Source: Octopus sinensis
Lineage: Eukaryota
Length of the DNA stretch: 16,403 nt
Direction: 5' to 3'
NCBI RefSeq assembly: GCF_006345805.1
Contig: NW_021825075.1
Span: 1 to 16,403 of the forward strand
The position numbers and the translations under genes are program-made. The notes beneath the pieces are model-generated. The model saw only the letters and a program-made list of their open reading frames with translations, was not told the DNA's origin and made no database searches. How positions within the stretch are numbered: the first letter of the stretch is position 1; every line of letters starts with the position of its first letter. Positions 4,093-16,238 of the stretch are shown here, in pieces.

Positions 4093-4229
4093 CCAACGAC
4101 CTCGAACCCACACGTGTAACAAGAGAGACAAAGACGGCAGAAACAAGGAAAATGTCAATTGTATTTGAATACTATGCAAATATTCTTTAAAAAACTTTTC
4201 TTTTAATTTTTCTAAATTTAATTGTTTAC

Positions 4230-4271
4230 TTTCAGTTGAAAAAGTCTCAATGACTGAAACCGATACTGAAA
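4230..4271 (+). ncRNA. Degenerate minimal type-I hammerhead ribozyme motif
   Basis: Stem I UUUCAG(4230-35)/CUGAAA(4266-71); core UUGAAAA (2 mismatches to CUGANGA); stem II AGUC-ucaau-GACU; GAAA 4256-59; near-palindromic stem III ACCGAU; triplet AUA. Confidence 0.6.
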
Positions 4272-4585
4272 TGTTTTTATAAAATTATTTTAGCATTTTC
4301 TATCTTGACTTTTTTTCCAGGTTTTATTTTGAATTTCATACGTAAATTTTAGTTATATTTCAGAACTATTTACAATTTTCAAGTGTGTTTCATTTCATAT
4401 CTCACACAACACGGCAAACTTTCAATATCGAATTCTCATAGCATGATTTGTTATAAGTCTCATGCTCCTGAAAGAAAATTTTTGATTGAAATATATTCCT
4501 TTAAAATGATCCTTCACAATACCGATATAACATTTCGCTTGTTTACTAGATTACATAACCATACACGCAGACACATACAGATGGA

Positions 4586-4636
4586 TTGTGTCTGTGTTTG
4601 TGTGTGTGTGTATACGAGTATGTATGACTTTATATA

Positions 4637-4681
<45 letters not shown>

Positions 4682-4799
4682 ATATATATATTAACATAAT
4701 ATATATATATATCTATATATATATTATATATTTATATATATATTACATACATATATAATATATATATATATTATATATATATTTATATATATATACATC

Positions 4800-4822
<23 letters not shown>
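4586..4822. repeat. (TG)n plus long imperfect (TA)n array
   Basis: Seen directly. Confidence 0.95.
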
Positions 4823-4830
<8 letters not shown>

Positions 4831-5589
4831 ATGCGTGTATGTATCTATTTATATTCAAAGTGTATAACTTTAGCATACACTTTGATCTTTCCAGTCTTCA
4901 AGGTGAATGAGAAATAAAATTCTGTAATTCGTTGATCAGAATCCCTTCTGTCAAAGTAAAATATGGCTTTCCTTCATTTGCCATCAAAGATTACTACCTG
5001 TCCGTTCCTGAATTCCTCTATAAAGATGTACGCAATTTTGCAAAATTCTTCTTGCCTAATAATGCTTCAGGAAACACCACCATATTATACGAAACTAAAT
5101 CAACTTTATGCGACGTTAAGATCGTCTGTATGAATAAAAAAAAAATACTACTAAATATGCACCTAATATTTGTACGTGCTCAATGTATTTGGTTAAAATT
5201 TACATCGCCCTTGGCAGCCACATTGCGAATTCTACGTATTCTCCGAGTAATTTACAAGCATGATAACCTTGTAAACCCACATAGTACCAACCGCTAACGA
5301 ACAGAGGTGATTAAAATGGCTGCGGAATTTCTTAAAATATTGCAGGATATAAAATAATTATCGATTCTAAATTCAAGATTGTAAACTTTTACAATGATAG
5401 ATCTCACTCCAATTTCTCTGAATTTTTCTTTTCGGAAATGCTAACGAATTCCTCTACAACGTACATAATGCAGATGGAAATTCTAGTTAAGTTTATTGCT
5501 TCACGAATTTCTAGTCACTGTGCCTACTATCTGTTGAAACCTCCTATTGGCTGAAACTAAGAAGATTCCGTGAATGTAAAGACAGACAC

Positions 5590-5675
<86 letters not shown>

Positions 5676-5798
5676 GGATGGATGGATGGATGGATAGATA
5701 GACAGATAGATAGATACATACATACATACATACACACATACACACATTCATACATACACATATATATATATACAAATATATGCATATATATATATATA
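5590..5798. repeat. Compound (GATA)n(GGAT)n(CATA)n(TA)n array
   Basis: Seen directly. Confidence 0.96.
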
Positions 5799-5801
5799 TT
5801 A

Positions 5802-6000
5802 CTTTTACTTGTTTCGGTCATTTGACTCTGGCCATGCTGGAGCACCGCCTTTAGTCGAGCAAATCGACCCCAGGACTTATTCTTTGTAAGCCTAGTACTT
5901 ATTCTGTCGGTCTCTTTTGCCGAACAGCTAAGTTACGATGGCGTAAACACACCAGCATTGGTTGTCATGCGATGTTGGGGGCGGGCAAATACAGACACAC
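5802..6000 (-). mobile_element. 3' half of tRNA-derived SINE family B
   Basis: The minus strand begins gtgtgtctgtatttgcccgccccc, matching gtgtctgtgtttgtcccc that follows the microsatellite in the copy at 6027, and ends ccagcatggccagagtcaaatgaccgaaacaagtaaaag. The family assignment is from recall of Octopus repeats. Confidence 0.7.
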
Positions 6001-6026
6001 AACCATATACACACGCATACATATAT

Positions 6027-6240
6027 GTGGTAAGTAGATTGCTTACGAACCACATGGTTCCGTGTTCAGTCCCACTGCGTGGCACCTTGGCCAAGTCTCT
6101 TCTGCTATAGCCTCGGGCCGACCAGAGCCTTGTGAGTGGATTTGGTAGACGGAAACTGAAAGAAGCCCGTCGTATATATGTATATATATATATATATATA
6201 TATGTTATGTATATGTTTGTGTGTCTGTGTTTGTCCCCTC
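6027..6240 (+). mobile_element. 5' half of tRNA-derived SINE family B, with internal (TA)/(TG) microsatellite
   Basis: tRNA-like head gtggtaag...; B-box-like GTTCAGTCC at 6064-6072; body ...gaaagaagcccgtcg, then (TA)n and gtgtctgtgtttgtcccc. Confidence 0.75.
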
Positions 6241-6283
6241 CTCTGTCGTGTTTCAGCCCTAAGCCTACGGCCATGCTGGGGCA
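6241..6283 (-). mobile_element. Isolated SINE 3' tail (family B-related)
   Basis: gtttcagc...ggccatgctggggca is shared with 12380-12416 and with the terminus at 5811-5844. Confidence 0.6.
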
Positions 6284-6317
6284 TACACACACATACAACC
6301 CACACCCACACACACAC

Positions 6318-6357
<40 letters not shown>

Positions 6358-6401
6358 ATGTGTGTACATGGCATACGATTTAGCTCAAAGACTAACAATT
6401 G

Positions 6402-6535
6402 CATATTATATCGCTCTCAGTGCGAGAGTGGTAGGTTATTTCATCGACCTTGGACTAATGAAAGCAAAGTTGATTTCGGCAGGATTCGAACTTAAGAAGC
6501 CAGATGAAGTAACATACGGCATATATTGCAACGAT
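6402..6535 (-). mobile_element. Old, degenerate copy of SINE family A
   Basis: atcgacc...atgaaagcaaagttgatttcggcaggattcgaactt resembles atcgacc...atgaaaggcaaagtcgacctgggcggaatttgaactt at about 8256-8308. Confidence 0.6.
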
Positions 6536-7380
6536 ACTCTCAGCATGCAAATATAGAAATTGTTTAATCCGCCTTTATACGCCACATCCAATACACACAT
6601 AATCCATTTCATAAATCCTTCCTTCCGTGTCTTAAATATTAAAGATTAGCAAAAGATATTTATAGTGTTTAACTTAGCTTTCTACAATATTTATCTAATA
6701 TTAACCCCATAAATATCTCCTCTTTTCACCTTAATCTCCACCTACTTTCAAATATAGTAACCCCGAATTAATTTCCGATCGTGAATTCACTTATAGATAG
6801 CTTAATTCTTAATCATATCCTGATTTCGTTATTATTTTTAATTACGCTACAGACATTATGTCAGTAAAAACAATTTAAATAATACAAGAGTAAACACGAA
6901 CAAATCTCTCTAAATATATCTTGAATGCGACGCCCAATAACATAAACAATTATATCGAGTGAAAAATAAAGACTCTTTGCAAGTTTTATGAGTAATTACA
7001 ACATGCTCTGTCTAGTCTGCATTTCTAAATCTTACGAAGAATAAATCTCTAAACTCTCCGCCTAACAACCTCTGTTCTCATAAACGCTTCACTCAAAATA
7101 TTTATCGATTTTTACAGCGTTGGATTTAAATTGTCATCGATGTTTACACGATCCGTCTGCTCGAAAGAATCTAAACGTGAAGCAACGATATATTTTTATC
7201 ATACGAAGATCATGCTTCAATTAACTGATTTATTAAATCGTGCCAGACGCGCAGCAAACTTATATTCGATACAATTGTCTACACTGGAAAATGGGAATAC
7301 CTTTCGCTGTGACAAAAGTCACGGGAGAAAATCTCACTTGTTCGACAAGATCTGTGAAAATACATTGAGGAATAAATGAC

Positions 7381-7441
7381 GTATTCAGATTTTGGGACGC
7401 ATGGCGTTTCTCGGTTAGCATGCATCATCAGCCACGAATAC
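7381..7441 (-). ncRNA. Type-I hammerhead ribozyme motif with canonical core and GUC site but defective stem II
   Basis: Minus strand: GUAUUCG-UGG | CUGAUGA | ugcaugcuaaccga | GAAA-CGC-cau-GCG-UC | CCA-aaauc-UGAAUAC. Stem I is 3+7 bp around a 5-nt bulge and stem III is 4 bp. Confidence 0.6.
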
Positions 7442-7492
7442 TCGACGTTCATAGGCCTTTCAGAACGACCCCCACGCTCGAGTGTACATCGA

Positions 7493-8130
7493 CGTCGTCG
7501 TCATCACCTTTCATACGCCTGCAACGCATTGATTGTACTACAAAGCAAGCCTTCTCGATTAAGCGCGATTCCTGCAGCTGGCTTGTCCAACCAGCTCTTG
7601 ATATTTTACCATTCATTGATTTAAGGCGGTGAGCTGGCAGAATCGTTACCGCACCAGTCAAAATGCTTAGCGGCATTTCGTTTGTCTTAAGTTCAAATTC
7701 TGCCGAGTTCGACTTTGCCTCGCATTCCTTCGGGAACGATACAATAAGTACCACTTGAGCACTGGAGTCGATGTAATCCACCAGTCCCCTCCACCTAACT
7801 TGCTGGCCTTGTGCCAAAGTTTGAAATCGATATTTTCCATCCATTGCCTTCTTTACCTGCCTCTTGATCCACTATACTCTACTCTTCTTTCTATTATAAC
7901 ATTTTCCAAACTTCTTCTTCAAATATAGCCATTATAGACGAGCTTTGTTTTTTCAAAATGTTTAAGATTTGTCTTTCGCCTACTTGTAACACCCAGTCAT
8001 TGTGCAATGATCCTCCTAAGAAGCTCGCAACATTCTCCAATACACCCACATTTCAAACGCATTGTGATATCTTCAAATTCTATCAGTGCCCACGCCTCGC
8101 AATCAGGAATACATTAAATATCACTAAATA
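7493..8130 (-). mobile_element. Decayed RTE (BovB-like) LINE 3' fragment, split by a SINE insertion at 7619-7828
   Basis: The minus strand reads, with stops and frameshifts, CEAWAL / NAFEMWVYWRMLRAS*EDH / NDWVLQVGERQILNILK / KLVYNGYI*RRSLENVIIERRVEYSGSRGR*RRQWMENI [SINE] KSWLDKPAA / RNRA*SRRLA, then a tgatgacgacgacg tail. This matches the RTE YGCE.W...AFEMW..RRMLRI.W...GRQR..W.DNI pattern. Confidence 0.88.
7619..7828 (+). mobile_element. Full-length SINE family A with ~18-bp target-site duplication
   Basis: Head ggcggtgagctggcagaatcgtta; B-box-like GTTCAAATTC; body shared with the 8151 and 11461 copies. TSD gatattttaccattcattg (7600-7618) / gatattttccatccattg (7829-7846). Confidence 0.88.
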
Positions 8131-8150
8131 TCATTGTACATGAATATATG

Positions 8151-8374
8151 TTTCTTTATTACCCACAAGGGGCTAAACACAGAGGGGACAAACAAGGACA
8201 GACAAACGGATTAAGTCGATTATATCGACCAAGGTGCGTAACTGGTATTTAATTTATCGACCCCGAAAGGATGAAAGGCAAAGTCGACCTGGGCGGAATT
8301 TGAACTTAGAACGCAACGGCAGACGAAATACGGCTACGCATTTCGCCCGACATGCTAACGGTTCTGCCAGCTCG
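8151..8374 (-). mobile_element. Near full-length SINE family A
   Basis: The reverse complement closely matches 11464-11692 (gagctggcagaaccgttagca...gttcaaattccgcc...gcctttcatcctttcggggtcgat...tttagccccttgtgggtaataaagaaa). Confidence 0.92.
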
Positions 8375-8415
8375 AACACTAAAGAAACCGTATGCCTTTT
8401 CATATTTTGAAATCA

Positions 8416-8797
8416 TCTCTCTCTATATAAACGGCAGTTTGTCTGTGTACGTGTCTGTGTGTCTGTTAGGTTGTACCTCAACCTGACCACGGCTTTCAAC
8501 CGATTCTGATGAAACTTGACATACACATAGCCCAATGTCATAATTCAAAACTAACGCAGCGAAAATTTTGAAAAGTTCCCCCAGTTCTGAAAAAGATCGA
8601 TAAATTCGACATGGGGTCGACAATCAGAAACACAAACCACAGCTGTCTAGGGGACGCAACTCGACCTTTTTAACTCTCAAAAAACATTTACCATCATTTT
8701 TTTCCCATTTTTTTAATATTTTTTGGCTATAACTCTCTAAAAATGCTTTATAGTTATTTCCCTTACAAACCCGAGCAACGCCGGGCGATACTGCTAG
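8416..8797 (+). mobile_element. Non-autonomous Helitron (382 bp)
   Basis: Starts TC (8416) after an A and ends CTAG (8794-8797) before a T. GC-rich hairpin cccg(a)gc-aac-gc-cggg (8770-8785) lies 12 nt from the end. Short gtct/gtgt repeats near the 5' end; no TSD. Confidence 0.8.
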
Positions 8798-9524
8798 TCT
8801 TTCATAAACCCTTGTTTTACTACCAATACAGAACCACAGTTTTCTTTTTTACCGTTTCCTACTCATTTCCACCTTTCTTTTGGCCATTCCATTCTAGATC
8901 TTCTCAAACGCTTCTCTTTCTCTTACCGAGCACCTAATCACCAATACAGTCAAGCTACAAATCACTCTTTTAAAACATTTGTAACACAAAATTCTTAAAA
9001 CTGTGTATCGCAACTTCATTTACATTCTCCATATACGCAACATATTTTCGAGCAACACCGTTTAATGAGCGTGATTCATTTATCAACCGAAAGCCAGTTT
9101 TCCCCTAATTGATTTTTAGAATTCGAATGGTTTCTAAATACCAGAACTAATCTTGCTTCACTCAGTATATTAAGTTTTTTCTGCTTCCATAAATCAACCC
9201 GCTTCCACCTCACCATTTCACCCACCCACCCTATTCTTCAAATTCCTTCCTTCTCAAAGTGTTTACGTTTCCATTTCCAATATTCCGAATGAGTTCACAT
9301 GTAATATTGCATATCATTAATTTTGTACGTGTAATATCTTTGTTTTAAAAAAAAAACTTCGTTGTTATATTCTGAACATTCGAGAGAAGACTGACAAATG
9401 AAGATTCATACTATATTACATTCTGCAGCTTTAATTAGTTTTTTTTCAATCTCCTTTTTACCTGTATTACATAACTATAGTTTACAGGCTCTAGCGCGCG
9501 CACACCTACCCACCCACCTCGACA

Positions 9525-9654
9525 GACACACATGCACAAACACACACACACTAACACAAACACACATAGATAAAAAGATACAGCTATATACACAATACAT
9601 ACTTACATACATGTACGTACAAAAACACACACATATAGCTATACATACATATAT

Positions 9655-9699
<45 letters not shown>

Positions 9700-9723
9700 A
9701 AAAATATAATATATATATATAAA

Positions 9724-9755
<32 letters not shown>

Positions 9756-9941
9756 TATGTGTATATATATATATGTGTGTGTGTATGTATGTATAATGTA
9801 GTTATCTGTCTATCTATATATTATATAATATATATATATATAGACAGATCCTACATTTATACATACATACACACACACACCACACACATATATATGATAT
9901 ATATATATATATATATACATACACACACATATATATATATA
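9525..9941. repeat. Compound (CA)n/(TA)n/(TG)n low-complexity block
   Basis: Seen directly. Confidence 0.93.
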
Positions 9942-9977
9942 TGTCTGATGAACGGCAACGGGAAACTCAGAGTAACA
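9942..9977 (+). ncRNA. Type-I hammerhead ribozyme motif, intact core
   Basis: UGU | CUGAUGA (9945-51) | ACG-GCAA-CGG | GAAA (9962-65) | palindromic ACUC-A-GAGU | GUA triplet (cleavage predicted after 9974) | ACA pairing with UGU. Confidence 0.7.
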
Positions 9978-10081
9978 GGTTTTGTTGAATTTTTCTGCTG
10001 CTTTAAATAAAGCATATTACTCTACCACTAGTATTTGAGTACTCTTTTTCCACCTTGTTTCACATTTATGTTTACTCCGGT
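9942..10081 (+). mobile_element. Short HHR-bearing interspersed repeat, copy 1 (5'-truncated; putative Penelope-like/retrozyme terminal repeat)
   Basis: Clearly homologous to 14065-14206. It starts with an HHR, carries AATAAA about 30 nt downstream, and is embedded in (TA)n. Confidence 0.75.
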
Positions 10082-10103
10082 ATATATATATATAATATAT
10101 ATA

Positions 10104-10196
<93 letters not shown>
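10081..10196. repeat. (TA)n(GA)n compound microsatellite
   Basis: Seen directly. Confidence 0.97.
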
Positions 10197-10198
<2 letters not shown>

Positions 10199-10364
10199 TG
10201 AAAGAAAAATCACATATTCAATTAAGTAAAAATATGTAATTAAATATGTGATTTGAAGAAATAATATGTGATATGTAAATAACTGTATTTTTTTTTAATA
10301 CAGCCATCCAGCATTCTGAACGCCTTTTTCTTTCATATGTACATCATCCCCAAAACTAAGTGAT

Positions 10365-10632
10365 ACAAAAGAGGACAACAACACATCCAGATAGACGATG
10401 CAAAAAAAAAAAACGCGGACGGGTCATTCGAAGCCTTTTATCTTCTGTCAAGAACCGGATCATCCCCGCAATTTCGGCTGATTAATCTTGAGATTTCTCC
10501 AATCTGGCCAGCCCCAAGGAAAAACTAAGCTAAGAGCATTAGATATCTTAGAAAAAAAGCATCGAATATGTACGAAAACAAGGATAGAAAAACAGACGAT
10601 GTTACACGAATATAAATACAAAAATACAATAA
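10365..10632. mobile_element. Unclassified interspersed repeat abutting (TA)n
   Basis: GC-richer island with an internal inverted repeat (ggctga...ccagcc; agatt...aatct) next to a (TA)n tract. It resembles a recurrent Octopus repeat from recall only and is single-copy in this window. Confidence 0.4.
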
Positions 10633-10644
10633 AAAAAAAAATAT

Positions 10645-10664
10645 TAATATATATATAATATATA

Positions 10665-10717
<53 letters not shown>

Positions 10718-10806
10718 TATATATATGATACGTATATACACTATACATAATGCATATTGTGTATGTATATAATATATATGTGTGTGTGTGTGTGTGGTAT
10801 GTGTGT
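10645..10806. repeat. (TA)n/(TG)n block
   Basis: Seen directly. Confidence 0.93.
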
Positions 10807-11269
10807 CAGAACGTAGGGTGGGGTGTGAAGTATAATTGTAACAACGATAGAAATAATATGTACAATAAATACATCAATTCGATGTATTTCTCTGTAAGTA
10901 AATAAACAAATAGATAAATGCTGGAAAGATCAAAATATCAACCCATAAAAAAAGTTGTTTTAACCTTCCAGCAATTCAAGCGATTCTACCTAACGTTCTT
11001 GAATAACGTCTAGAATAAATATTTTCTTTTCTTTCCCTCTTCCTCTCGTCTCTTTCTCTCTCTCCCCTTCCCTCGTTCTTCCGTTTCTCTTCACAGAACC
11101 TATCGCATTCTTGGTCTTTGCGTATTTTCTGTACCTCCCCGCTTCACTACATCCCTTTTTCACTCCCATTTTCTCTTCTTTCCGATGCTATATTTCATTC
11201 CGACTTTTCTATCCAAACATATATATTTTACGTAATGTAACTATGGAAAAACGAACCACCCATGAGCCT

Positions 11270-11460
11270 CACTGAGGTCGCCCGATCTGCTAGATATAGC
11301 AACCAATTCTCCTTCAATTCCATAACTATCTCACGTTTCTCAGGAAAAGACACTGGTTAATTTTGTCCTATTTTCCTGGTTTGTAGGAAAATGAACAGAT
11401 CGTCACGGACGGAGAGCCTGTGTGTTTAAATCTGTTCGATAAGAGCTGATTTAGTGTTAA
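11270..11460 (+). mobile_element. Old SINE-like 3' fragment, the target of the 11461 insertion; terminus continues at about 12110-12141
   Basis: cccgatctgctagatatagcaacc...gtcacggacgga...gctgatttagtgttaaaaacaagcaa resembles an Octopus repeat ending in (CAA)n (recall only). Confidence 0.4.
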
Positions 11461-12109
11461 TAGGCGACGGACTGGCAGAAACGTTAGCACACCGGACATA
11501 ATGCTTAGCGGTATTTCGTCTGCCGCTACGTGCTGAGTTCAAATTCCGCCGAGGTCGTCTTTGCCTTTCATCCTTTCAGGGTCAATTAAATAAGTACCAG
11601 TTACACACAGGGGTCGATGTAATCGACTTACTCCGTTTGTCGGTCCTTGTTTGTCCCCTCTGTGTTTAGCCCCTTGTGGGTAGTAAAGAAATAGGTATTT
11701 CGTCTGCCTTTCATCCTTTCGGGGGTCGATAAATTAAGTACCAGTAAACGCACTGGGTCGATGTAATCGACTTAATCCCCTTCTCCTTGTTTGTCCCCTC
11801 TGTGTTTAGCCCCTTGTGGGTAGTAAAGAAATAGGTATTTCGTCTGCCTTTCATCCTTTCGGGCGTCGATAAATTAAGTACCAGTAAACGCACTGGGTCG
11901 ATGTAATCGACTTAATCCTTTCTCCTTGTTTGTCCCCTCTGTGTTTAGCCCCTTGTGGGTAGTAAAGAAATAGGTATTTCGTCTGCCTTTCATCCTTTCG
12001 GGGGTCGATAAATTAAGTACTAGTAAATGCACTGGGTCGATGTAATCGACTTAATCCCTATCTCCTTGTTTGTCCCTTCTATGTTAAGCCTCTTGTGAGC
12101 AATAAAGAA
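11461..12109 (+). mobile_element. SINE family A followed by three tandem ~140-bp copies of its internally deleted body, within one 22-bp TSD
   Basis: Head at 11463; extra units start with ggtatttcgtctgcc at 11694, 11834 and 11973 (periods 140 and 139). TSD ataagagctgatttagtgttaa (11439-11460) / ataagtgctgatttagtgttaa (12110-12131). Confidence 0.93.
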
Positions 12110-12379
12110 ATAAGTGCTGATTTAGTGTTAAAAACAAGCAAAATAGAACTAATTTAAACGTGAAAATGGATTCCACATACGAATGAAAAGTTTGAAGGTG
12201 ACTAAGTACATTCTGACATTCTGACCGCTATCTCGGTGCTGGGAAATATTATTTATATAGCTACAGTTTGAGTATAATTGATATGGGTATATGTGTGCGC
12301 GGGGGGGTTATGATTTCCGCTGAAGAAATACACGTGGATACTTTAAAATGTATCATTTCATTTTGTTTTTCATTACATC

Positions 12380-12414
12380 TAGTTTCAGCTCACGAGCTGT
12401 GGCCATGCTGGGGC

Positions 12415-12416
<2 letters not shown>
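12380..12416 (-). mobile_element. Isolated SINE 3' tail (family B-related) adjoining (TA)n
   Basis: gtttcagctcacgagctgtggccatgctggggca; compare 6241-6283. Confidence 0.6.
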
Positions 12417-12454
<38 letters not shown>

Positions 12455-12636
12455 CAATGTTATGAGGTCATCGTGTTTATATTAATCTGTGTTCATCAAA
12501 TGCATTTCGCATGTTGTATTGAAACAAGTGTAACTACAGGATTGAAGATAATATCAAAAATTCCATTTTTTTAAAAATTTGAGATATATATAGCTACATA
12601 TGTATATAGATATATGTATGTGTACGTACGTATGCT

Positions 12637-13020
12637 GAGGTGCAATGGCCCAGTGGTTAGGGCAGCAGACTCGCGGTAATAGTATGGCGGTTTCGATTCC
12701 CAGAGCGGCCATTGTTAGTGTTTATTGAGCAAAAACAACTAAAACTCCACGAGGCTTCGACAATGGGTGTTGGTGAACCCTGCGGTACTCTTTCTTCCTG
12801 CTTCTGTTGTACCTGTATTTCGAAGGGCCAGCCTGGTCACACTCTGGTGCCAAGCTGTATCGAACTTTGCTCTTCTCTTGGATAACATCGGTGGCGTAGA
12901 GAGGCGATGCTGGTATGCATGGGCGACTGCTGGTCTTCCATGGCCAATTTGGCTAGACTGGTGCCTCGGAGGGTAACTTTCTAGGTGCAATCCCATGGTC
13001 ATTCATGACCGAAGGGGGTC
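12637..13020 (+). mobile_element. Full-length tRNA-derived SINE family C (about 385 bp)
   Basis: Pol III A box TGGCCCAGTGG (12646-12656) and B-box-like GGTTTCGATTCC (12689-12700) at tRNA spacing. 3' stem-loop ggtca-ttca-tgacc (12997-13010). Possible TSD atgtgtacgta at 12618 and 13026. Confidence 0.85.
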
Positions 13021-13053
13021 ACACAATGTGTACGTATATGAGTGTATATATAT

Positions 13054-13220
13054 ATTTCTTTACTGCCCACAAGGGGCTAAACATAGAGGGGACAAACAAG
13101 GACAGACGAAGGGATTGAGTCGATTACTGGTACTTTATTTATCGACCCCGAAAGAATGAAAGGCAAAGTTGACCCCGGCGGAATTTGAACTCAGAACGTA
13201 ACGACATACGAAATACCGCT
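13054..13220 (-). mobile_element. 5'-truncated SINE family A with a small internal deletion
   Basis: Matches 8151-8335 in the same orientation and lacks the ~20-nt atatcgacc...gcgta segment. Confidence 0.9.
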
Positions 13221-14010
13221 TTGTATATATATGTGTGAGTGCGTGCATTCGTGTGTGTATGTGTTAGTCTCTGTGTGTGTGTATGTGTGTGAGTGTGTTT
13301 GTGTTTGTGTAAACATAGAGAGTTATGAATGAAAAGTGATGTGTAAGATTAGAATTCGAATAACAAGAATTATCAATAAAAGTCGAAAATCATGTAGCTG
13401 CGATTTCGGGAAAGTGTAAATTAACACACAACTTCCATAACGGATATTGTATCCCAACGAATAGCACAACAAATTCAGCTTCTCTAGATATACTTCTATT
13501 TAGTGTGATACACAGATTGACATTTTCAACTAATGCTGCAGTAGCTACTAACGAACTTTTATTCAGTCAGTAAGTTACCTGCAAAATCAGGGATTTTAAA
13601 ATTATTTTTCTGCTGTAATGAAGTTTTTTTTCTTCTTGGTATGCAGTTGCCTTAAGGCACATCGTGCGGAAGAATCGCAGGAAAAAGGAGAAATGTGTAT
13701 CGACCATTCTTGCCACCGCTGCTAGGCGACTTCCGTCTACTGCAGCGCCTGTTAATTTGGTTTCCTATGATCTCTCAGCACGTCTATGACATATACACTG
13801 TAAATATGTATACCCACCGCCACACATGTATATATGATATATAATATGCATCTGTATATATACTTATACGTACATAAACACACATATTCATATATATATA
13901 TTGTTGTATTTGAGAATGGTCATTTTGCCAGTTTAGCCAATAAAAAATCTTGCACAAGAAATATATAAACGCAATATATATATATATATATATATGTATA
14001 TACATATATA

Positions 14011-14203
14011 CTTTATTGTTTGAAATTGTTCGAAATTGTTATTTCGGTTCTATTTTAACAAAACTGTCCAACGAACGAGAGCGTGAAACTCCGAGTAACA
14101 GCTTTTGTTATATTTCTGCTGCTTTTAAATAAAGCATATTACTCTACCTCTGGTATTTGAGTACTCCTTTTTCCACCTTGTTTCACATTTCTGTGCTTAC
14201 TCC

Positions 14204-14206
<3 letters not shown>
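14011..14206 (+). mobile_element. Short HHR-bearing interspersed repeat, copy 2 (longer)
   Basis: Homologous to 9942-10081 and flanked by (TA)n on both sides. Confidence 0.75.
14056..14110 (+). ncRNA. Type-I hammerhead ribozyme motif, intact stems but mutated core
   Basis: Stem I UAACAAAA-CUGU / ACAG-(C)-UUUUGUUA (12 bp, one bulge); core CCAACGA (14068-74, versus CUGANGA); stem II ACG-AGAG-CGU; GAAA; ACUC-C-GAGU; GUA triplet. Confidence 0.65.

Positions 14207-14266
<60 letters not shown>
14206..14266. repeat. (TA)n(GA)n compound microsatellite
   Basis: Seen directly. Confidence 0.97.
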
Positions 14267-14268
<2 letters not shown>

Positions 14269-14369
14269 AAGTTTATTTGCCAACAAAATGCTGTTTTCTC
14301 CACTATGGAGTACACGAAGGATGATAAGTTATGGAGACTTTGAGCAAGTCGTTATAGTATATCAGCTCT

Positions 14370-14414
<45 letters not shown>

Positions 14415-14425
14415 ACAGCAGCAGC

Positions 14426-14464
<39 letters not shown>

Positions 14465-14690
14465 GGTGATAGTAGTAGTAGTAGTAGTAGTAGTTGTTGT
14501 TGTAGTAGTAGTAGCATTATTTGTAGTAATAGTAGTTGTAATAGTGGTGTTGGTGGTGGTGTTAGTTGCAGTAGGAGGTGGACGAGGAGGAGGTTGCAAC
14601 GATGGCGACGGCGACGACTAGCAGAATGAGTAAGGGTCGTAGGGGTAGGAGTAGTAGGAGCAGCTGTAAGAAGGGGGAGGTGGTGGATGG
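14370..14690. repeat. (TAG)n trinucleotide array decaying into CAG/TGG/TTG/GAG variants
   Basis: Seen directly; it explains the poly-Ser and poly-Thr ORFs. Confidence 0.93.
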
Positions 14691-14818
14691 CAGAGAAAAC
14701 AAGCAGTTTCGCTAAATTATACGTTGTGATTGGATTTGATTAAGTATTGAGGAAAAAAAAAGAATTTGAACTGGTTGATATGTTATGTGATATTTCGTAC
14801 AATGAATGGCAAGGCAAC

Positions 14819-14966
14819 ATGTGTGTGAGATGTATATACGTATGTATGTATTTGCATGTGTATGCCTTTGTGTGTGTCTATGTTCATGCTTGTGTGTGTG
14901 TGTGTGTATGTGTGTATGCGTTAGAGTATGTGCACGCGCGTATGATAGGCAGTGTGTATATGCATG

Positions 14967-15005
<39 letters not shown>

Positions 15006-15220
15006 GTAGACGCAAATGAATATATACTATATATATATATATATATATGTACATATATATAATTATATATATATACACACACATATATATACATGTGTGT
15101 GTGTGTGTATATATATACGTTTCGTAGAAACTATGAATATGTTTATATGAATATAAATGTCATATGAGGTAATAACATAAAATATGGCATATAATAATAT
15201 ATATATATATATATATATAT

Positions 15221-15257
<37 letters not shown>

Positions 15258-15545
15258 TTATGGATTATGTATGTATGGGTAGTTAGATACATAGATAGAT
15301 ACATAGATATATATACATATATATGTGTATACATATAAATATACATCCACTCTATATCTTCAAATATATGTGTGCATGTATGTATATACATATATGTGTG
15401 TGTACTTGTGTATATACATGCTTTTATAGGCATACATAATGCGCACAGATGTATATAACATAAACACGCATGCACACATACACATACGTATCTATGCCTG
15501 AATTTGTTTCCATAAAAATATGTGTCAGTATATATATGCATATAA
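14819..15545. repeat. Extended (TG)n/(TA)n/(CATA)n low-complexity block
   Basis: Seen directly. Confidence 0.9.
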
Positions 15546-16033
15546 CCAGATACAAATAACTATATACACGTATAATATGCCCGATCTTATGCAAAGCACA
15601 AAGCGCAAAATGATTGCACTTTGCAATTACAGATGAAATCAGCGGAAGAAATAAACATAGGGTTGGTCCCGTTTGGTGACATACGCCGCTATTTCGAACC
15701 AGAATAATTTCATATTTGCGATGTTTTAGCTACATGATTGACTGAGCAGTGTATTCAATATGTCGACTCAACATACGCATAGACTCATATGCATACACAC
15801 GCTAACAAACCTACGGCAACATGTAAATTCATACACATTATTAAACCGCCCACACACACAAATGAACATACATAGAATCATGTGAATAGAATTTAAATTT
15901 TTGATGTATACGTGCGTAGTTTGTAGCCGACAGTTTTTTTTTTTTCAAATCTGCCAATATGGCATTGTGTATGGGTATATATGTATGTTTCTATGCTTGA
16001 GTGTATATGCATGCGTTTATATATGTGACTGCG

Positions 16034-16235
16034 TGTGTATCATTGGCGATTTTCTTTCTCCGTCTTCCTTCCTTGGACTTTTCCTTTTTTTCTATATTCC
16101 TGACGAAGAGCTCCGCTCGAAACATTAAATCGTCCCTCTTTCTTTCCTTCCTTTTCTGAGCGTCCAATAACACTATATTTGTTCCACGCGGCCTCGCGTT
16201 GTTGTGGTTTCTCTCTGTTCATGTTTGGATTAACT
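16034..16235 (+). mobile_element. Short interspersed repeat containing an HHR-like core (putative Penelope-like terminal repeat)
   Basis: Pyrimidine-rich island between TG/TA- and CA/TA-rich tracts, containing CTGACGA-A-GAGC-tcc-GCTC-GAAAC. Confidence 0.55.
16096..16130 (+). ncRNA. Hammerhead-like motif (core and stem II present, stems I/III weak)
   Basis: CUGACGA 16100-06, extra A, GAGC-ucc-GCUC, GAAA 16119-22, then CAUU (one change from the palindromic ACGU minimal stem III). Confidence 0.45.
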
Positions 16236-16238
16236 ACG

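Follow-up and report, generated by a model that had tools for sequence, protein, structure and literature searches.

Several described systems bear on the hammerhead-like motifs treated here. Minimal hammerhead ribozymes (min-HHRs) of Penelope-like elements (PLEs) carry an extra base or a U3-A8 core, and they occur as thousands of solo motifs and as inverted pairs (PMC4209133; this and the other papers that we cite by PMC number are cited from those parts of their text that were accessible to us). For the Hydra clade of PLEs, PMC8557442 gives the motifs RWK, DKT, a CxCx5C linker, CxxC, and CxH, a C-terminal endonuclease (EN), and (TA)n targets, and its supplement tabulates an octopus element, Hydra-1_Obim, with its hammerhead. 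In PAc, a Poseidon element of the green anole, the PLE "tail" is tied to two reverse-transcription starts (PMC11167929). Natural hammerhead variants with U4C or U15.1-A16.1 have lower activity (PMC3088659), and a natural A6C variant prefers Mn2+ (PMC7151607). Here, we examine five hammerhead-like motifs (A to E) in contig NW_021825075.1 of Octopus sinensis. The window is this one whole contig, 16.4 kb long, and the genome that we searched is 2.72 Gb.

We find that motifs A, C, D, and E are very probably decayed minimal type-I hammerheads in the 3' pseudo-long terminal repeats (pLTRs) of three 5'-truncated PLE families that carry open reading frames (ORFs). A preliminary description of the window had reported five hammerhead-like loci from at least four unrelated contexts. 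The sequences are present at the reported places, but only four of the loci are real hammerhead relatives: motif B has no second copy in the genome and is likely a chance one-off, and C and D belong to a single family, so there are three families. The islands that contain the four motifs are 140–215-bp 3' stubs of these repeat families, and all four adjoin TA runs, as had been described. We labeled loci that were fetched from the genome around repeat-family copies with L and a number. The features of the window are as follows.

4105..4316, + strand: family A stub, the 3' end of a 5'-truncated PLE, putatively of Neptune/Nematis type; shares 91% identity with the 3' end of L094's ORF-bearing copy
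4230..4271, + strand: hammerhead A, with a U3-A8 core and a 4-bp stem II; predicted cut after 4265
5529..5566, + strand: motif B, unique, hammerhead-like by eye only, likely chance
9942..10081, + strand: family C/D stub, subfamily C1, from a PLE that is Hydra-type by its ORF motifs; 95% identical to a pLTR of the L156 array
9942..9977, + strand: hammerhead C, with a CUGAUGA core, A.G at 10.1-11.1, a GNRA loop, and a 9-nt near-palindromic stem III
10354..10667, - strand: family F stub, probably the 3' end of a PLE; its hammerhead-like core is a relic that has U15.1 and fails the descriptor
14026..14206, + strand: family C/D stub, subfamily D, whose 3' end abuts (TA)n; 92% identical to the ORF-linked copy in L093
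14064..14101, + strand: hammerhead D, with U4C (subfamily-wide) and G5A (this copy); predicted inactive
16021..16236, + strand: family E stub, a PLE 3' end putatively of Neptune/Nematis type; 87–88% identical to L157 and L159
16096..16130, + strand: hammerhead E, with a canonical core, one additional A (between 9 and 10.1), 4 bp in stem II, and a palindrome of 4 nt

Each of the four window copies has a defect. A single G>A change interrupts the stem III palindrome of copy A; copy C, whose stub is truncated inside stem I and has (TA)n on either side, combines the 10.1-11.1 mismatch with a shortened stem I; copy D has G5A on top of the U4C of its subfamily; and copy E has G16.2>A, a broken palindrome, and a stem I mismatch beside the core. 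None of the five motifs passed a strict minimal-hammerhead descriptor, and in none are core, stems, and palindrome all intact. From these defects, the window copies are predicted to be inert. We considered the perfect CUGAUGA of copy C as a sign of function and ruled this out, because C4 is found in 20 of the 23 copies of its own type, C1 (hand count); the U4 of copy C is likely a CpG change from the C4 of its subfamily. Similarly, the idea that C and D, 4.1 kb apart, act as a co-transcribed dimer is unsupported, as both copies are damaged.

The window by itself would not have identified these motifs. A loose descriptor found 6 matches in it, which include only A and D of the five motifs, versus 2.9±1.8 (maximum 7) in 40 block-wise dinucleotide shuffles. 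The search against Rfam that had been proposed as a check gave 146 matches at E ≤ 10, none of them to a hammerhead, and we discounted these matches as microsatellite-driven microRNA noise. The absence of a PLE ORF from the window, which had also been reported, was upheld: tblastn with nine PLE protein pieces found nothing at E ≤ 0.01.

The picture is different at the family level. We counted exact motif patterns in the genome and used the reversed pattern as a control, which gave 0 matches for each motif. There were 580 matches for family A, 5,589 for family C/D, and 4,230 for the E-type motif. (First-look DNA searches of the genome gave 1,917 candidates for A, 1,225 for C, 2,622 for D, and 3,559 for E.) Because the exact patterns are abundant and the reversed controls are empty, we judge the motifs to be non-random at the family level only.

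For each family, we aligned the 30 top copies, which are the best BLAST matches to the window copy and hence not a random sample. The motif is better preserved in these copies than in the window. The families follow the core C3-U4-G5-A6-N7-G8-A9 / G12-A13-A14 / A15.1-U16.1 / H17 or a known variant of it: E and subfamily C2 are canonical, A has U3-A8, and C1 and D have U4C. In family A, U3 is present in 29 of 30 copies and A8 in 30 of 30 (U3 in all 100 among the matches listed), stem II has 4 bp, and most of the 30 copies have an intact 6-nt palindrome as stem III. Family E has the extra A, a G10.1-C11.1 pair, a 4-nt palindrome, and U at H17 in 27 of 30 copies. Subfamily D has C4 in 28/30 and G5 in 23/30 copies, with a 3-bp stem II and a GNRA loop. 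C and D are subfamilies of one family, whose stem III is a 9-nt palindrome with one central mismatch; among 57 copies, 21 have C4 with A.G at 10.1-11.1, 10 have U4 with A.A, and the rest mostly have C4 with A-U. Of the first 100 C/D matches among the matches listed, about 40 have C4 (hand count). The preliminary reading of the motifs as PLE-type minimal type-I hammerheads with a palindromic stem III, from abundant microsatellite-associated elements, is supported in this respect.

Stem pairs that were not imposed by the search covary in family A and in families E and G (G is a sister of E, found outside the window, with U at core position 6). The outer stem I pair of E and G (n = 65) is C-G in 31 copies, G-U in 16, A-U in 11, G-C in 4, U-G in 1, and mismatched in 2, and the 10.1-11.1 pair of family A (n = 30) is A-U in 25, G-U in 3, and G-C in 2; these tallies count copies and not independent events. 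Across the loci enriched for the families, the strict descriptor had 96 matches in 574,432 bases, versus 0–1 in each of eight shuffles. In an even sample of the genome (60 regularly spaced stretches of 10 kb, or 600 kb), a descriptor with the same three cores had 7 matches, versus 4 in total over 10 shuffles. Families A, E, F, and G together had 13 copies in this sample and C/D had none, or about 0.4 per 16 kb versus 5 in the window. The window is locally rich, which fits the abundance of TA runs, the targets, in it.

Seventeen of the 96 strict matches lie outside the A, C/D, and E classes and include about six further families. In these loci and in the even sample, we noticed such additional minimal-hammerhead families by chance, several with U3-A8, some with U4C, and some in inverted pairs (L003, L015, L060, L069, L117, L128, L136, L168, L179, L240, L253, L262, L266, and L270).

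The copies of these families have a fixed 3' end, while their 5' extents range from about 170 to over 1,500 bp with no common boundary (sampled copies). TA or AT repeats lie directly past the 3' end in 27/30 copies of A, 26/30 of D, and 19/29 of E. An inverted partial copy adjoins 8 of 30 D loci. Family C/D has two alternative 3' ends that are about 66 nt apart (53 long, 14 short, and 3 other among 70 copies), and loose ends in contig runs fall at the same two sites; these ends match the PLE "tail" of PMC11167929. The four contig runs, which do not display transcript ends or expression, showed no site with numerous starts or ends and no clean intron junction. Overall, 5' truncation, adjacent inverted copies, and an optional tail are all found, as is typical of PLEs. 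The preliminary description had also suggested looking for copies next to ORFs with reverse transcriptase (RT) and GIY-YIG domains. Such copies exist for A, C/D, and E: in each, longer copies contain a single ORF with a PLE-type RT plus, at the C terminus, GIY-YIG.

For family C/D, L156 contains a head-to-tail array of units of about 3,332 bp with 98% identity; its hammerheads lie at 477, 3810, and 7161. Three pLTRs, each with a hammerhead, surround two frameshifted ORFs that carry RWK, DKT, YRDD, CxCx5C, CxxC, and CxH, and the ORF piece has 41 homologs of 561–738 amino acids. Judged by these ORF motifs, which match the list for the Hydra clade in PMC8557442, family C/D is a Hydra-type PLE. 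The array itself (L156:1-7240; G000:C8:54561000-54568240) looks young; the frameshifts are not the same from unit to unit and could stem from the assembly. Separately, L093:1378-3647, upstream of a Hydra-type PLE copy, is a tandem repeat with a unit of about 395 bp and 97% identity.

For family A, L094 contains coding sequence for an RT region, a Cx4CxxC linker, and a GIY-YIG domain, which stops about 600 bp short of the hammerhead (RVT_1 E = 0.008 and GIY-YIG E = 2e-4 in Pfam, both under the cutoff), and sequence of the EN end also lies upstream of family A in L095, L063, and L159. For family E, L157 and L158 are collinear over about 3 kb with RT, Cx4CxxC, and GIY-YIG (Pfam E = 0.006 and 0.02, under the cutoff); the order is the GIY-YIG ORF, then about 2 kb of CA-rich sequence, and then the hammerhead. 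L094 also contains an inverted pair of family A copies that is immediately preceded by a related PLE with a 592-amino-acid open frame for RT and GIY-YIG (L094:1-1776); the 3' motif of this related PLE looks decayed.

Several observations weigh against our interpretation. All of the GIY-YIG scores in Pfam are below the curated cutoff (15.5–21.9 versus 22.6 bits), the RVT_1 cutoff is passed only by the neighboring related ORF, and the Hydra-type pieces (including L093) and two RT pieces of E and G had no Pfam match for RT or EN. Families A, E, and G would be of Neptune/Nematis type, yet the linker on which this assignment rests, CX2-5CxxC, does not separate the two clades. Same-family tandems were seen for C/D only and not for A or E. 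As for the ribozymes, the 10.1-11.1 pair is mismatched in C1 and C2, which leaves a stem II of only 2 bp, and minimum-energy homodimer folds show the full double hammerhead in some families only, with stem II refolding in E, G, and D. The window on its own, as described above, is not enriched over shuffles. Finally, self-cleavage of the family motifs after H17 is a prediction.

Family G bears on the question of function. It is the most abundant hammerhead-shaped motif that we found in the genome, with 16,186 exact matches (control 0). It occurs at L157:5983-6030 (+) and at the pattern loci L187–L216, and it is linked to an ORF with RT and GIY-YIG in L157 and in 6 of the 30 pattern loci. We found 34 copies by their downstream flank alone; five had no usable motif, and U6 is present in all 29 of the gap-free copies. 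In these 29 copies, N7 is U in 13, C in 8, A in 6, and G in 2, while H17 is A in 21, U in 7, and C in 1; the core shows few other changes, most of them of the CpG type. N7 follows subfamilies whose 3' flanks are only 70–85% alike. Of the first 100 A6-type matches among the matches listed, no more than 2 have the loop of G. An A6U descriptor had 0 matches in the 600-kb sample, because its four G copies are decayed. These data point to selection acting on an RNA of hammerhead shape that has A6U. Loop 2 is nearly invariant as well, and a protein-binding site would look alike. It is possible, although we think it rather unlikely, that G is a working natural A6U hammerhead, selected across several divergent subfamilies of PLEs, whose activity requires the PLE protein or a different cation; the latter idea is by analogy to the A6C variant and its preference for Mn2+. 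Our literature search, mainly of the open literature, turned up no natural A6U hammerhead, and A6U is not named in the accessible parts of PMC3088659 and PMC7151607; its fixation in the core of family G is possibly new.

The strongest rival explanation concerns what the hammerhead shape does: it may no longer cleave and may persist as a relic, or as a structure to which protein binds, retained or passively inherited on other grounds. Such a reading would leave the PLE origin unaffected, and we consider it quite possible while leaning slightly against it. Conserved positions are changed across whole families (C4 in C/D, the 10.1-11.1 mismatches, and U6 in family G), Naiads lack canonical hammerheads (PMC8557442), and hammerhead mutants of the anole PLE inserted in vitro as well as the original (PMC11167929). 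On the other hand, adding the PLE protein does make that anole motif cleave (PMC11167929), U3-A8 is a compensated pair, and the stem pairs covary. Furthermore, family G is strongly variable only at N7, at H17 (G in 0 of 29 copies), and at one outer stem base; this is the variability that a working hammerhead tolerates and therefore argues against a relic.

The stubs were likely inserted at TA microsatellites by the endonuclease and reverse transcriptase of the elements themselves, and PMC4209133 and PMC11167929 suggest the following steps. As in the known PLE mechanism, the PLE protein would nick AT-rich DNA. Reverse transcription would start 50–110 nt downstream of the hammerhead and would mostly stop early, so that no other part would be copied as frequently as the hammerhead region. 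If a tandem transcript were intact, its two hammerheads would pair via their palindromic stem III and would cut after H17, weakly or with help from the protein.

Motif B could instead be a real but very old hammerhead from a family that is too diverged to detect, which we consider improbable. Its 7-nt core string is identical to that of family G, a GAAA lies at a plausible distance, and it adjoins a microsatellite. But it has no stem II, no palindrome, and no NUH with a stem I; it fails both the loose and the strict descriptor; and fold prediction gives no hammerhead. We also considered it as a member of a repeat family and rejected this, as it is single in the genome (one match by DNA search, and one match to the 27-nt pattern with up to 2 mismatches). 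A BLAST search of motif B against the fetched loci found nothing besides itself and GATA repeats.

The preliminary description had regarded the islands as mini-retroelements, that is, as non-autonomous derivatives or retrozymes. If so, they would be discrete elements that spread via their own small (circular) RNAs. Most copies are only 150–300 bp with no ORF nearby, and the hammerhead region is far more common than the ORF, as one would then expect. But the ragged 5' ends share no boundary, the longer copies continue into PLE ORFs with RT and GIY-YIG, and the sole array that we found has a 3.3-kb unit with an ORF. This makes the mini-element explanation very improbable for the families as a whole; since our sample consists of the best BLAST matches, there may be a minor discrete non-autonomous subfamily among the copies. 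That AT-rich sequence produced all five motifs by chance, as the window's shuffle-like counts and lack of Rfam hammerheads might suggest, has a negligible probability and is refuted for A, C, D, and E by thousands of exact copies versus 0 in controls, by family motifs that are better than the window copies, and by their expected position in pLTRs.

Other repeats in the window include family F, for which we found 2,146 candidates in the genome. Its core has CUGANGA and GAA followed by U15.1, and its stems are weak. A GIY-YIG-like ORF lies upstream in 1 of 25 loci (L177), and the family is likely another PLE 3' end. At positions 11562-12112, a 140-bp unit that is derived from a SINE-like repeat recurs in tandem about 3.9 times. 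We take the SINE-like repeat to be a short interspersed nuclear element (SINE); it is also present at 7620-7800, 8143-8370 (-), 11460-11700, and 13048-13220 (-). Two further interspersed repeats (5800-6240 and 12635-13020) are presumably octopus SINE-type elements.

Overall, this kind of element is already known, and only some of the family-wide core changes look new. Short TA-flanked islands in the genome can be understood as PLE 3' ends, and at least 26,000 exact hammerhead-shaped motifs (A, C/D, E-type, and G summed) escape Rfam-type searches. In the texts that we consulted, the suggestion that these elements are under-annotated fits their ribozymes only: an octopus repeat annotation lists PLEs as an order of transposable elements, with 0 occurrences of "ribozyme" in its main text (PMC13282606). 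With sister families that have canonical, U4C, A6U, and mismatched-stem cores in thousands of copies, the purpose of PLE hammerheads becomes testable. If the A6U hammerhead does work, then together with the U4C and stem II mismatch subfamilies it would form a natural series that reveals which of the core rules are relaxed in protein-assisted hammerheads.

The octopus families extend the 2014 min-HHR result (PMC4209133) to another host. They share with those min-HHRs the type-I topology, the short stem I, a palindromic or absent stem III, the extra base at 9/10.1 (E), U3-A8 (A), solo copies in the thousands, opposite-strand pairs, and the small number of copies that lie in full PLEs, and the E motif agrees with the consensus line for min-HHRs in the supplement. 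Family C/D differs in its 2–3-bp stem II, its GNRA loop, and its lack of G10.1-C11.1. The accessible parts of PMC4209133 make no mention of families whose core has U4C or A6U, and "octopus" is absent from the searchable text of its supplement (two of three files). Our literature search for octopus PLE hammerheads, mainly of the open literature, gave only PMC8557442.

Family C/D resembles the Hydra clade of PMC8557442 in its ORF motifs, C-terminal EN, (TA)n, and hammerhead near the 3' end. Compared with Hydra-1_Obim, it has another hammerhead, a unit of about 3.3 rather than 2.5 kb, and clear pLTR tandems. Families A, E, and G resemble the Neptune and Nematis elements of PMC8557442 in having CX2-5CxxC before a C-terminal GIY-YIG and a (TA)n preference, but the CA-rich 3' region of family E, at about 2 kb, is unusually long. 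Like C/D, PAc has a hammerhead in its pLTR, AT-rich targets, and two alternative 3' ends; unlike C/D, it has no Zn-finger linker, and the start codon overlaps with its hammerhead (PMC11167929), while in C/D about 170 nt separate the hammerhead from the first ATG downstream of it, and the tail measures about 66 nt. Retrozymes are non-coding hammerhead-bearing repeats (PMC6155905, PMC7229834), as are the octopus stubs, but retrozymes are discrete non-autonomous units (PMC6155905), whereas the stubs come from PLEs that bear ORFs and are ragged at their 5' ends. Finally, U3-A8 (A), U4C (C1 and D), and U15.1 (F) are among the natural variants of PMC3088659 and PMC7151607; there, they are rare cases from viroids or phages, and in the octopus they are fixed in families of thousands.

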